Of a DNA stretch of 64,000 nucleotides, positions 20,038-63,423 are shown in pieces (position 1 is the first letter of the stretch; every line of letters begins with the position of its first letter). The stretch comes from a virus: IMG/VR virus record IMGVR_UViG_3300030049_000007; one strand, 5' to 3'. Position numbers and translations under genes: made by a program. The notes below the pieces were generated by a model. It was not told the DNA's origin and ran no database searches. It saw nothing but the letters and a program-made list of their open reading frames with translations.

Positions 20038-20057
20038 ATTATATTACTTCCATTTAT

Positions 20058-20087
20058 ATTATAACAAAATTATTCTAATAATTGCAG
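20058..20087 (-). promoter_or_regulatory. Class I promoter copy 2
   Basis: TGCAA-N18-TATAAT, TGTTATAATATAAATGGA. Confidence 0.75.
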
Positions 20088-43914: not shown

Positions 43915-45461
43915 GGTCCACGTTCTTTAGTTCTACGTTTAAGATATGGTTTGTTACAAGTTTTCCAAGATGATTCTAGATCTTTACAAATATCTTGTGC
44001 TTCTTGTAAAGTTAAATTAGAATAGATTGTAGACTTTTTTAATTTTTCATTCATATAGAAAACTTTGACTTTATACATTGCTCTTCTCCATTAGCAAGAT
44101 ATTTAGCATATTCCAACATTAACTTTTTACTCGGCATACTATATGGATTTCCCATAGCAACCTGTTCTTCCAAAAACTTTGCTAAATACTTATACATTAA
44201 CGAAAGATATGCTTCAGCAAAATATTCTTTTGACTTATTGAACGTTCTAGCTAATTTAACTACTTTAAGATCTGTGATTTTAAGTTCTAAATAGAATTGA
44301 ACTTCATTTGAATAAAAGATATCTAAATTTTCGAATGTAGTTTTAATCATTTGATTTGAAGTCCAATAAAAGCAGCGTGATCTACAACTTCGATATACTC
44401 TTCAAAAGGTCCATATGTTGCAAATACTTTTTTAGAAATAACATCTATATCTAGAAGAAAAAGTAGTAATTTTCCATCAATATTTTTAATCTCAACTAAT
44501 CCGATATGTTGATGTTTAGTCATTTTTGATCATTCCTTTAGCGAAGTTGTACATTATCTCATTAGCTTTAATGAATTTTACATGAGATTCAGTAAAAGAT
44601 TTAAATAATAATTCTAAATCTTGTTTAAATTTATAACCTTTTGCTAAATCTACTTCGGCCCCAATTCTTAAATCTTCACAACTCCATCTATTATCAAAAT
44701 CAAAAACTGCATCAAGTTCATTTGAGTTGACTTCACAAATATACTTCTTTGGATAACCTTCTCCATAACCTAATATTTTCACATTATCTCCTGTACACGA
44801 GCATGATAATAGTCTTTTTCGAGAGTGATAATTCTAGTAAAAATAAAATTCTCAATAGTAAACTCATTTAAAGATCTAATTGAAGTATAAAGAAAACTAT
44901 AACTAATATTTAGTTCTCTAGCAAGTGCAGCAAGATTGGTGAATGTTTGACCTTTATTGGTTTTTTTATTATATATAATCCATTCATTATAATTAATATA
45001 TTTTCCACGATCAAGATTATTATTTTTCTTAACCTTTTCTTTCCAAATTTCTTTTTCGGTTGGTTTATAATCAATACGTTCAATTTTAAGAAAATCATTA
45101 TTATAAGGAGTTCTAGGACTACTACTAATCCTATTATAGATATGATTGTAAAAACCTTTATTTCCATTCGGAAAATGATTTTTTAGTTCAGTCATCAATT
45201 GATGCTGTTCAATCACATAGGATTCTTCAGTATTCTTTACTGTAATCTTATACTCATTTCAATCATGCCTTTCAGGTGGTCGATATTTAATTACGTATTT
45301 CTTATCCATTAGATCTTTCATGATTTTTTGCTTAATAAGTTCGCAAGTATATTGATTAATTCCATTATTATTTCCTAAATTAACTTGTTCTATAATGGTA
45401 ATTACTTTCTGTAAAAATTCTTCTTTAACATCTCTTATAGTTCTCATTATTCTCCATAGCT

Positions 45462-45693
45462 AAAAAAGGCACCGTTTCGCCATATAGGCCGGGTCGGTGG
45501 TTCCCTTATTACAACTAATCGTTAGTCCCCTTTGCGAACTTAAACGTTAGCTTTTCTATGCTCTTATTTCCCCGAAGGTTATAGAGATTGCATAGAAGAC
45601 TCTATAGAGGTTTAGCTATACTAGCCAGTTTACTCCGTCGCTTTCGCTGTTGAGGTACTTACGACAAGACCCGGTTAACCTCTAAACCGTTCC
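45462..45693 (-). ncRNA. Candidate structured non-coding RNA (~230 nt)
   Basis: No credible ORF, GC-enriched, multiple stems. Bounded by a class I promoter and a hairpin-TTTTTTAGCTAT end. Confidence 0.65.
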
Positions 45694-45699
45694 ATATAT

Positions 45700-45729
45700 A
45701 TTATAACAAAAAAATGTCTAATTTTGCAA
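45700..45729 (-). promoter_or_regulatory. Class I promoter copy 3 (drives the candidate ncRNA)
   Basis: TTGCAA-N18-TATAAT. Confidence 0.8.
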
Positions 45730-45917: not shown

Positions 45918-45947
45918 ATTATAACAAAATATAGGACTTATTTGCAT
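45918..45947 (-). promoter_or_regulatory. Class I promoter copy 4
   Basis: TGCAA-N18-TATAAT. Confidence 0.75.
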
Positions 45948-45972
45948 AGCTAAAAAAAGCCCCGAAGGGCTA
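45946..45972 (-). terminator. Intrinsic terminator
   Basis: AGCCC-TTCG-GGGCT followed by TTTTTTAGCTAT. Confidence 0.8.
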
Positions 45973-46290: not shown

Positions 46291-46320
46291 ATTATAACAT
46301 AATATTAGTTATTTTTGCAT
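46291..46320 (-). promoter_or_regulatory. Class I promoter copy 5
   Basis: TGCAA-N18-TATAAT. Confidence 0.75.
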
Positions 46321-46357
46321 AGCTAAATAAAAAGCCCTTTCGGGCTTTTTATTTTTT
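46319..46357. terminator. Bidirectional terminator
   Basis: AAAAAGCCC-tttc-GGGCTTTTT. Confidence 0.8.
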
Positions 46358-50642: not shown

Positions 50643-50839
50643 TTTTAATCCTCGTCTGAGTCGCCATTATAATATGGCCAAGACATATTTTACTCCTGTA
50701 TATATTGTGTTTCAAACACCCTCCCATATGTAAGGATTATATAGTTATTAGGATGATAAGTCGCTATTGCTTATCAAGTATTTTTTGATAAACAATAACT
50801 ACTTACCAAGAGAAATAATATAATATTATCTCCATATAT

Positions 50840-50869
50840 ATTATAACAAAAAAGGAAGACTTTTTGCGA
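50840..50869 (-). promoter_or_regulatory. Class I promoter copy 6
   Basis: CGCAA-N18-TATAAT. Confidence 0.75.
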
Positions 50870-50902
50870 CACCTGTGTTATCATTAAGGAAAGGAGATTC
50901 TT

Positions 50903-55281: not shown

Positions 55282-55312
55282 CTAAAAAAAAGACCCGAAA
55301 GGGTCTTTTCTC
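55278..55312. terminator. Bidirectional terminator
   Basis: AAAAGACCC-gaaa-GGGTCTTTT. Confidence 0.85.
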
Positions 55313-55435
55313 TTAGTGACTTGAAATTTTAATTACAATACAAGATACAATAAACATTCCAAACAAAATCCAACCCATATGAAGTCTAAGGGTTGGAATA
55401 AGTTTGGGCTGTTCTCGTAACCATTGCTTCCTCAT
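55313..55435 (-). CDS. Small membrane protein (40 aa) in a stand-alone cassette, not in the ORF track
   Basis: MRKQWLREQPKLIPTLRLHMGWILFGMFIVSCIVIKISSH*, between promoter copy 7 and a terminator. Confidence 0.55.
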   Translation of the reverse strand: MRKQWLREQPKLIPTLRLHMGWILFGMFIVSCIVIKISSH

Positions 55436-55490
55436 AACCATCCCTTAATAAATAAATTTTGAGATTACACGATGTAATCTCTTCATTTAT

Positions 55491-55520
55491 ATTATAACAA
55501 AAATATCTTAATATTTGCAA
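55491..55520 (-). promoter_or_regulatory. Class I promoter copy 7
   Basis: TTGCAA-N18-TATAAT. Confidence 0.8.
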
Positions 55521-55523
55521 TAC

Positions 55524-61994: not shown

Positions 61995-63250
61995 GTGAAT
62001 ACTCCCCTCCCTAAAGGGAGGGGCTTCTAGGATTATTTCAAATCCAAAGACGCCATTCCACGTCTCAAAATATTTATGCTTGCATTAAGATCTCGATCCA
62101 AAACTAGTCCGCATGAACATGAATGAGTTCTTTCGGAAAGTTCCTTTGGAATGAGCGATCCACATCTAGAACACATTTTACTAGTATTCTTAGGATCTAT
62201 TAATACAACCCTCTTACCGGCCCATTCTGCCTTGTATTGGGTAAATTGTACGAATTGATTCCAGGCTACATCGGCGATGCCTTTACGAATATTCTTCATT
62301 TTAGTATCTTGCATTTTATCAATAGAAAGATCTTCAAAAACTATTAGATCATATTTGTTTACTAAATTTAACGCTGCTTTATGCGCAAAATCTTTACGAA
62401 TATTTGCTAACTTTTCATGGATTTTAGATTCTATTAAACGTGCCTTATTTCGTTGTTTGGAACCTTTAGGTTGAAGTTCTCGTTTTCTAGAAGCACTTGC
62501 TAAACGTTTTTTATATTGATCAAAGAATCGCTGTCTTGGAATTACCGTTCCATCTGACATAGTAGCAAATGTGGTTAGACCAAGATCAATGCCAACGGAA
62601 TTATCAACAGGTTGAACAATATTTAAATCTTCCAATTCACATGAGAAGGTAGCAAACCACTTTCCTGTAGAAGTCTTTTTGATTGTGAGAGTTTTGATCT
62701 TACCTTGAAGAGGACGATGTAAAGTAATAGAAATTTCACCAACCAATGAGATTTTAAGTTTACTATCAAGTAGTTTAAATCCAGATTGAGGAAAGGTGAA
62801 GCTGTCGTAATGTCCTTTTCCTTTGAAGCGTGGATAACCTGGAGTTTCACCAGACTTGCAACGGCGAAAAAATGCCTTGAAAGCTAGATCGACTCTTGTT
62901 TGAACTTGCTGCAAAACTTGACTATGAACTTTATATAAATCTAAATGAGATGATTTCCATTGGGTTAAATAACTTGATGAATCATAGAGACTAATATTTT
63001 CTTGATTTTTCTCCCATGCATTTTTACGAAGTTCTAATGTTTTATTGTAAAGCCAACGGCATGATTCTAAGATAGACTCTAACCTAGTCAATTGTGACTT
63101 GGTGGGATAGAGTCTATATTGGAAAGATTTACGCACTTAACGAACCTCTAACAACCAGCATAACATGAAGAGAAAAAATGTCAAGACAAGCTCGACATTT
63201 TCACCCCTTATATCCCCGCCCTAAAGGACGGGGTTTTACGGGGCTTACCG
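61995..63250 (-). mobile_element. Non-autonomous IS200/IS605-family element (tnpB only, IS1341-like)
   Basis: Related subterminal hairpins CCCCGTCCTTTAGGGCGGGG (left) and CCCCTCCCTTTAGGGAGGGG (right). The right end finishes in TTCAC and the left end is preceded by TTTAT. No tnpA. Confidence 0.85.
62033..63136 (-). CDS. tnpB: RNA-guided endonuclease TnpB
   Basis: 'YRLYPT' HTH, RuvC 'GIDLG', 'FEDL' and 'DRDLNASINI', and zinc finger 'CSRCG...CSCG'. The catalytic D/E/D residues are intact. Confidence 0.95.
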   Translation of the reverse strand: MRKSFQYRLYPTKSQLTRLESILESCRWLYNKTLELRKNAWEKNQENISLYDSSSYLTQWKSSHLDLYKVHSQVLQQVQTRVDLAFKAFFRRCKSGETPGYPRFKGKGHYDSFTFPQSGFKLLDSKLKISLVGEISITLHRPLQGKIKTLTIKKTSTGKWFATFSCELEDLNIVQPVDNSVGIDLGLTTFATMSDGTVIPRQRFFDQYKKRLASASRKRELQPKGSKQRNKARLIESKIHEKLANIRKDFAHKAALNLVNKYDLIVFEDLSIDKMQDTKMKNIRKGIADVAWNQFVQFTQYKAEWAGKRVVLIDPKNTSKMCSRCGSLIPKELSERTHSCSCGLVLDRDLNASINILRRGMASLDLK

Positions 63251-63412
63251 ATAAAGAACTGAATTTTCATCCCAAAGTCCCTAATTATTTCTAATCCATC
63301 TTCCTAATGTATCATGGACTGATCCAGAACCTTCTAATTGAATATAAACTTTATCTGTTTCGTTTAATATTTTATCTAACTCAATATGGCATTCATTTAG
63401 ATTCGTTGGCAT
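63251..63412 (-). pseudogene. Truncated gene (DUF6794-like, from recall) with an in-frame TAG, cut at the IS left end
   Basis: MPTNLNECHIELDKIL...HDTLGRWIRNN*GLWDENSVLY, then the IS. The TAG sits where a Trp (TGG) is expected in 'RNNWGLW'. Confidence 0.55.
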
Positions 63413-63423
63413 CTTTATTTACC

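Follow-up and report, generated by a model that had tools for sequence, protein, structure and literature searches.

We show that positions 45462-45693 on the minus strand hold the gene for a real, conserved and previously uncatalogued structured RNA of ~232 nt, which runs from a predicted transcription start to the end of a U-tract and whose extent is drawn from a covariance-model alignment and from metatranscriptome contigs. The RNA occurs, as a self-contained cassette with its own promoter and terminator, in a small set of uncultured phages from peat and permafrost that are related to one another, and it is a new family within a known kind, that of orphan phage-borne structured RNAs. The stretch of DNA analysed here (the window, 64 kb in full) corresponds to bases 57248-121247 of a complete, uncultured phage genome of 157,395 bp with direct terminal repeats and a G+C of 0.317 (IMG/VR; record G000), which encodes DnaE, helicases, a large terminase and 13 tRNAs, lacks a tmRNA, and is contained as DNA in many peat metagenome runs. 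To our knowledge, lytic phages have yielded few structured RNA families, and viruses of soil or peat hardly any. Here, the family boundaries are clear and the fold of nine helices is backed by covariation; an early, abundant structured RNA could be a regulator, a counter-defence decoy or a new sensor, and the construct is short and well defined, which makes biochemical tests practical despite the uncultured host.

The locus is embedded among small genes of the early type, and DnaE lies ~4 kb further downstream. An earlier note on this DNA, made from the sequence alone, had described the tract as ORF-free and enriched in GC, and both descriptions hold. Several stop codons interrupt each of the six frames across 45441-45720, and, with ORFs of at least 45 aa masked, 45448-45713 is one of five gaps of at least 150 nt in the 64-kb window and, at 0.41, the one with the highest G+C; the RNA itself has a G+C of 0.40-0.41 versus 0.24-0.31 in its flanks. 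Two more gaps in the window without an ORF of at least 45 aa, 55282-55523 and 50734-50902, each lie beside a promoter copy and, unlike the RNA, have an ordinary G+C (0.27-0.30).

The promoter (45694..45729, minus strand, as are all features of the RNA given below) consists of TTGCAA, an 18-nt spacer, a TG-extended TATAAT and then ATATATG, with a predicted start at G45693. It had been proposed as a best-consensus member of a repeated class, and the count bears this out: the window has eight copies of TTGTTATAATATATATG, this one at 45693-45709, where 0.15 would be expected, and every copy is on the minus strand. The whole genome holds 17 copies of the repeated promoter on a single strand, each with a TGCAA(A/T)-like -35 element, and the same promoter immediately precedes every full-length homologue of the RNA. 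Most transcripts from the 17 promoter copies begin with a short 5' hairpin of variable sequence.

At the other end, the proposed hairpin and U-tract, CACCG...CGGUG-CC-UUUUUU-AGCUAUG, are found in the sequence. The 3' strand of the terminator, CGGUG-CC (45474-45468), pairs with CACCG (45499-45495) and GG (45504-45503), and is followed by a U-tract (45467-45462) that is present in every member; the hairpin loop measures 20 nt, which is why a simple terminator scan misses it. The 5-bp core of this terminator is invariant in all members, with 93% of cells paired and zero covariation. The AGCUAUG on the 3' side of the U-tract is part of a recurrent module, AGCTATGCAA, that joins a terminator to the -35 region of the next promoter, and only the first half of the module remains at the 3' end of the RNA. 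At 45945-45971 and 46318-46329 in the window, and at promoters throughout the genome, terminators are joined to the next promoter via AGCTATGCAA, in which TGCAA(A/T) is -35-like.

Full-length homologues occur in three other phage lineages (L105, L226 and L229), which, with the window copy in G000, make up the four lineages counted here; L104 holds a partial copy. L105, which lies in a 112.7-kb IMG/VR contig, was detected by an exact-pattern scan with the 18-mer GGAACCACCGACCCGGCC, and another pattern scan of IMG/VR returned L105 again and no other locus. L226 and L229, whose DnaE proteins are 63% and 64% identical to that of this phage, were found via DnaE homologues with 10-kb flanks. L104 is a 2.4-kb JGI contig, ~90% identical overall, that contains the 3' 150 nt of the RNA, and in five strain-level assemblies (L089-L093) the RNA is identical. 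A covariance model, R1, built from L105 and L226 only, recovered the window copy over its full length (45455-45694(-); 55.5 bits, E-value 9e-15) and scored L229 at 151.5 bits and the truncated L104 at 25.6 bits.

The same model is specific: it gave no match in 458 kb of other phage loci or in the whole records G001, G002 and G003, and it did not find the RNA in the relatives L101, L102, L227, L228 and L231. Blastn with the RNA returned no match in the INPHARED phage collection, blastn and nhmmer with the single sequence returned no homologue among the relatives, and IMG/VR locus searches with one protein at a time (a 315-aa neighbour; DnaE) returned no homologue of the RNA; a single distant relative of the 315-aa neighbour turned up (L087/L088), at a locus that lacks the RNA.

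The proposal of a discrete, novel, structured RNA that matches no Rfam family, tRNA or tmRNA has survived these searches. Covariance-model searches against Rfam 15 gave no match at gathering score in the window or in the loci of the three full-length homologues, and at E-values up to 10 only chance matches appeared, to unrelated families and none of them common to the members. ARAGORN was negative for the window and the homologue loci, the relative G002 serving as a positive control with six tRNAs and a tmRNA. In that relative (L097:4978-10067; DnaE 44% identical), the six tRNAs and a 426-nt tmRNA, with a tag ending in ALKAA, precede DnaE, at about the place that the small early genes occupy in this phage; the 13 tRNAs of G000 lie elsewhere. 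Two other candidates were tried and rejected: a reduced tmRNA, on the negative ARAGORN result and the lack of a T-arm or acceptor stem, and an RNase P P4-like reading of CCGGG/CCCGG, which has no Rfam match and a helix order that misfits.

The fold begins with a 5' tail, GGAACGGUU (45685..45693), of which GAACGGUU is invariant in all four lineages. Domain 1 (45605..45684) is, by comparative alignment, a three-way junction of P1, H2/P1a and P1b. P1 pairs 45684-45677 with 45612-45605, and four of its eight pairs have changed on both sides, the strands being UAGAGGUU/AACCUCUA in G000, UAGAGGUU/AACUUCUA in L229, UAGGGAAU/AUUCCCUA in L105 and UAGGAAUU/AAUUCCUA in L226; invariant flanks anchor these columns, so their alignment is not in doubt. 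H2 pairs CCGG (45674-45671) with CUGG (45628-45625; YYGG across the lineages) and shows one-sided G-C/G-U changes only. P1a, UUGUCG (45667-45662) with CGACGG (45640-45635), contains the GC-GAAA-GC tip and has changed on both sides at seven of ten pairs. The hairpin GCUA-GUA-UAGC (45625-45615) had been listed among the stems and does exist; it occupies, however, the variable position P1b, which is shortened in G000 and almost missing from L229, and the hairpin itself shows no covariation.

Between the two structured ends lies P2, a hairpin of UAGAG (45604-45600) with CUCUA (45586-45582) that carries two compensated pairs, A-U to G-C in L226 and U-A to C-G in L229. It revises the CUUCGG-capped hairpin of the earlier note, whose stem is present but whose inner CUCU/AGAG pairing gives way to the conserved UAGAG/CUCUA. 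The segment 45554..45581 that follows includes a mini-hairpin, P3 (CC-UUCG-GG, 45578-45571), a conserved A-rich linker, GAAAUAAGA (45570-45562), and GCAUAGAA (45561-45554), which is able to pair with the P2 loop element UUCUAUGC (45597-45590). Because UUCUAUGC lies within the conserved P2 loop, this pairing would form an H-type pseudoknot and not a simple stem. A pairing of the P2 loop with its downstream cognate can be drawn at the same place in all four lineages, with 8, 3, 4 and 5 bp; this is suggestive, although significant alone only in G000 (p 0.005 versus shuffled loops).

The 3' part of the RNA holds P4, a long hairpin of GCUAACGUU (45551-45543) with AACGAUUAGU (45523-45514) in which four of 11 pairs have changed on both sides, and the domain of P5 and P6. 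P5 pairs GGG (45505-45503) with CCC (45493-45491) around an invariant loop, AACCACCGA (45502-45494), and shows one compensated double change: the 19-nt P5 block of L226 bears just two substitutions, which together convert a G-C pair of P5 into A-U. P6, GCC-UAUAU-GGC (45489-45479), never varies. The motifs GAACGGUU, UAACCGG, AACCACCGA and CGGUG are identical in every copy found. All the stems listed beforehand exist in the sequence, and covariation supports P1 (UAGAGGUU/AACCUCUA), UUGUCG/CGACGG and the long CUAACGUU.../...AACGAUUAG hairpin. An exact 18-mer from the P5 block has at least 120 matches in bacterial genomes; the 25 with the lowest GC, which were inspected, resemble coding sequence, the 18-mer itself translates as GTTDPA, and these matches say nothing about a host origin of the RNA.

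Collecting homologues and checking them for covariation, which the earlier note had named as a way to check the RNA, thus yielded both homologues and covariation. Over 56 pairs in nine helices, counted in five sequences from only four lineages on a model-guided alignment that favours the model's own structure, standard pairs are formed in 96% of the pair cells, and 22 pairs show pairing-preserving changes on both sides, versus 10.4 +/- 2.0 in shuffles, none of 500 of which reaches 22. The flanks of the key helices are invariant and fix their alignment despite this bias. When the partner columns are slid by 1-3 positions, merely 1-4 pairs with two-sided changes are left. Selection on the RNA is also visible at short range: L104 differs from the window at two of 150 positions within the RNA, both of them unpaired positions of the 3' domain, versus 186 of 1338 downstream (Fisher p 3.6e-7), a divergence ~10x lower than in the flanking genes.

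That the tract might be non-functional cargo, a spacer or the remnant of a decayed gene that folds by chance, is hardly credible to us. Two observations point that way, namely an unexceptional single-sequence fold energy (z = -1.6; 12 of 200 shuffles fold equally well) and the unrelated cargo held by neighbouring cassettes in relatives. Against it stand the double changes at 22 pairs, the reduced divergence, the persistence of the RNA in lineages whose DnaE is only 63-64% identical to that of this phage, and the fact that no reading frame survives in any member. The structure is proven by the comparative data, not by the single sequence.

Whether the RNA switches between alternative pairings is a separate question, which had been raised by a perfect 7-bp match between CCGGGUC (45674-45668) and GACCCGG (45495-45489), taken as either a pseudoknot or an antiterminator. 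The match exists, but neither role holds up. In the other lineages only a self-complementary CCGG/CCGG is left, no compensated change is seen, and the fifth and sixth pairs are broken in most of them. The 5' CCGG pairs locally with YYGG in H2, the 3' half supplies one strand each to P5 (its 3' strand) and P6 (its 5' strand), and the local helices that hold both halves are kept in every lineage, H2 with one-sided changes, P5 with one double change and P6 with none. The RNA contains seven 7-mer complement pairs versus 2.2 expected (p 0.036); 80% of dinucleotide shuffles give at least one 7-mer complement and ~5% give a GC-rich long-range 7-mer.

A different overlap does exist in the sequence. 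One and the same GGG belongs to P5 and, as 5' strand, to the lower terminator stem, so that these two could compete for it; the terminator core CACCG/CGGUG makes use of the P5 loop. The compensated change of L226 preserves P5 but leaves an A.C mismatch that weakens the terminator stem. Moreover, the terminator core, the ACGGUU of the 5' tail, the AACCGG of the junction and AACCACCGA are invariant and mutually complementary, while the ordinary helices covary freely. This pattern suggests alternative pairings, although the invariance does not tell a switch from a pseudoknot or from recognition by a protein, and no helix that is purely antiterminator in role shows covariation.

Outside the RNA, the arrangement of the next gene bears on the same issue. 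The first downstream gene in this phage encodes 62 aa (45259..45447, minus strand), has an SD, GGAG, that starts 9 nt past the U-tract, and has no separate promoter. The interval between the U-tract and the SD of the next gene is free of promoters in each of the four lineages, and the next gene must therefore be reached by read-through of the terminator. The gene that follows the RNA is different in each lineage, the products being proteins of 62, 148 and 47 aa and a membrane protein of 62 aa. The 62-aa gene of this phage is conserved in L101 and L104, and is not behind the RNA in L105, L226 or L229. The earlier note was right that no other promoter of the class lies ahead of the downstream genes here, the next copy on the same strand (at most two mismatches) being at 20051-20067. 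G000 and L229 have no further promoter copy ahead of DnaE; L105 and L226, however, have additional promoters 0.2-0.7 kb downstream of the RNA, and gating of the block of 13 genes is for this reason not a conserved property. Two genes past the RNA, a 145-aa ORF (window 44779-45216) has a weak match, under the Pfam cut-off (E 0.002), to NUMOD1, a DNA-binding domain of homing endonucleases.

These observations define the principal alternative, in which the RNA would be a conditional terminator, that is, a riboswitch-like or protein-responsive leader whose structured body would detect a ligand, some protein or the polymerase of the phage itself. With P5 stabilised, perhaps together with the loop-to-3'-strand pairing, the lower stem GGG(A)/(U)CC(C) would be blocked and transcription would continue into the genes downstream; failing that, a full stem of 7-9 bp would form and the 232-nt RNA would be released. 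We regard this as possible though somewhat unlikely. It draws on the order of promoter, ~230-nt structured RNA, hairpin with U-tract, SD and ATG in four of four lineages, on the shared GGG and the mismatch in L226, on the invariant complementary elements, and on the lack of another promoter before DnaE in G000 and L229. The four downstream ORFs, on the other hand, are small and unrelated and offer no regulon theme, the promoters close behind the RNA in L105 and L226 leave the block ungated there, closer relatives keep the same downstream genes without the cassette, and a covarying helix of purely antiterminator role is missing. A bolder version, that of a portable promoter-sensor-terminator cassette of phage early regions representing a new class of sensing RNA, seems to us rather unlikely; in it, the body made up of the three-way junction and the pseudoknot would recognise a small molecule, some host factor or the polymerase of the phage itself, and the competition between P5 and the terminator stem would set the amount of read-through into any genes downstream.

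The distribution of the cassette is patchy. It is present in G000, in L104 and in the clade with 63-64% DnaE identity, whereas relatives at 72-74% are without it; these closer relatives retain the same downstream genes. In L101, the slot between homologues of the 53/57-aa and 62-aa genes is filled by a different promoter-cargo-terminator unit. This unit (L101:4465-4670; DnaE 74% identical) holds a GC-rich cargo with a possible ORF of 43-55 aa, in which a 7-bp stem, GUUUCAC/GUGAAAC, encloses the SD and the start codon. Other ORF-free units from promoter to terminator, of ~210-240 nt and with the terminator followed by (A/T)A(G/A)CTAT, occur at L102:2850-3085 and at L095:11640-11880 (G001); they share no sequence similarity with this RNA or with each other, the unit in G001 may hold a 25-aa ORF, and both could be further small RNA genes in the same type of cassette. 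A promoter-led stretch at L226:2861-3730 is 77-80% identical to L105:6119-6759; it is poor in ORFs (a 922-nt gap between called genes), its L105 counterpart holds a 96-aa ORF, and it could represent either a gene in decay or a further non-coding transcript.

With our confidence evenly balanced, we favour a stand-alone, trans-acting RNA, transcribed at an early stage of infection and set free by its own terminator. We prefer it to a conditional terminator because the downstream gene differs in all four lineages, and the patchiness of the cassette, the differing downstream genes and the further promoters of L105 and L226 together favour a moron-like RNA gene that stands independently; it is probably not a leader that serves one particular gene. 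The presence of the promoter and the U-tract terminator at every full-length copy supports a stand-alone RNA, while the layout, which resembles that of a riboswitch or attenuator and has the next gene without a promoter after the U-tract in four of four lineages, speaks against it, and the overlap of P5 with the terminator and the change in L226 fit a regulated terminator.

The transcript, which a copy of the repeated promoter is predicted to start at about G45693, folds into the three-way junction, P2 (with its possible pseudoknot) together with P3 and the A-rich linker, P4, and a P5/P6 domain overlapped by the terminator. As we envisage it, the RNA would then be freed at its own hairpin and U-tract, early in infection, and would act in trans through its invariant unpaired elements, namely the 5' GAACGGUU, the junction UAACCGG, the loop AACCACCGA and the A-rich linkers. 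The likeliest mode of action would be to bind or sequester a host or phage protein or RNA, in the service of host takeover or counter-defence.

Metatranscriptomes provide a first view of expression. A 2-kb region around the RNA is represented, in small shares, in six runs, four of which were compared. Two of these four, from different studies, have a sole contig that falls wholly inside the RNA (45505-45673 and 45525-45673, both 100% identical), for which we estimate, roughly, a chance of 1 in 100. The RNA runs X15 and X18 cover other early ORFs and not the RNA, and stretches without contig cover do not amount to evidence of silence. The RNA contigs are low-depth assemblies (2.7x and 5.9x) that carry no information on strand, exact ends or the amount of read-through, and DNA carry-over is possible.

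Both contigs end at 45673 (nt 21), 20 nt short of the predicted start, and they stop 40-60 nt short of the 3' end; the shared end is a weak hint of a processed end. Random-primed libraries of short transcripts typically lose their ends, commonly the last ~20 nt at the 5' end. A self-processing RNA, i.e., a ribozyme cleaving near nt 20-21, would account for two studies stopping at exactly the same nucleotide with no loose end, and the complex fold with its possible pseudoknots would suit it. We nevertheless consider it very improbable, since no self-cleaving Rfam family is matched, a cut at this point would detach the covarying 5' strand of P1, and the customary loss of 5' ends, at the depths given above, could explain the shared end.

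The architecture also invites comparison with guide RNAs. On such a reading, the RNA would be a guide-like decoy for a host RNA-guided nuclease and would sequester or redirect an effector of the Cas9 or IscB type; its invariant 5' tail would serve as a short guide, P1, around a large loop, as the repeat:anti-repeat stem, and everything beyond as the scaffold. The parallels are an invariant 5' tail of 9-11 nt, a covarying 8-bp P1 that closes an insert of ~85 nt, a long tail and a terminator, and a role in counter-defence would be in keeping with strong, early expression. The GUUUAG after the tail and the terminator core CACCG/CGGUG we take to resemble the S. pyogenes sgRNA. However, the tracrRNA and HEARO models gave no match in the regions searched at Rfam E-values up to 10, neither G000 nor G006 encodes a Cas9 or IscB (the sole match being a sub-threshold HNH), P1 has merely 8 bp, the ~145-nt tail after it carries extra helices, and the resemblance rests on short motifs. 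Natural single guides (bioRxiv 10.64898/2026.06.01.729453) are similar in architecture, tracr-L, at ~211 nt, having a guide of 13 nt and a stem around a large intervening loop, followed by a tail and a terminator; even so, we find a guide-like role improbable.

Nor does the presence of TnpB track that of the RNA. An intact TnpB is encoded at 62033-63136 of the window (HTH_OrfB_IS605, OrfB_IS605 and Cas12f1-like TNB domains), beside an ORF-free, slightly GC-richer stretch of 287 nt (63137-63423); a second copy in the genome (G000:47666-48295) is 38% identical, and the copy in G006 is broken by stop codons. A TnpB reRNA was rejected as an identity for our RNA: the nearest tnpB is 16 kb off, the genome has no similar sequence, and TnpB is intact in G002, which lacks the RNA, and broken in G006, which bears it.

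Several known systems share parts of this design. The put RNA of phage HK022, ~70 nt in two stem-loops, acts in cis in processive antitermination; like it, our RNA is a structured element that immediately follows an early promoter of a phage and has terminators downstream, but it has three times the size and a conserved terminator of its own at the 3' end. Terminating riboswitches and T-box leaders have the same order of promoter, structured RNA of 200-250 nt, hairpin with U-tract, SD and gene, and in terminating riboswitches a conserved helix competes with part of the terminator stem, a part for which P5 is, going by its sequence, a candidate here; unlike them, this RNA matches no model, precedes unrelated genes and shows no signature of ligand or tRNA binding that we could see. 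Tracr-L, viral sgRNAs and the IscB omega-RNA (HEARO) likewise start with a conserved, short 5' tail, have a large insert closed by a stem, continue into a long structured tail with a terminator and are expressed early from phages, but no sequence or model match links them to this RNA, its phages are without Cas9 or IscB, and its stem is short. The closest kin in kind are GOLLD, ROOL and the cyanophage manA and wcaG motifs, which are likewise orphan, phage-borne, multi-helix RNAs with possible pseudoknots that were recognised by covariation. GOLLD and ROOL measure ~500-800 nt, several times the 232 nt of this RNA; compared with all four, it has no Rfam match at gathering score, and it occurs in four lineages with its own promoter and terminator in a region of early genes.
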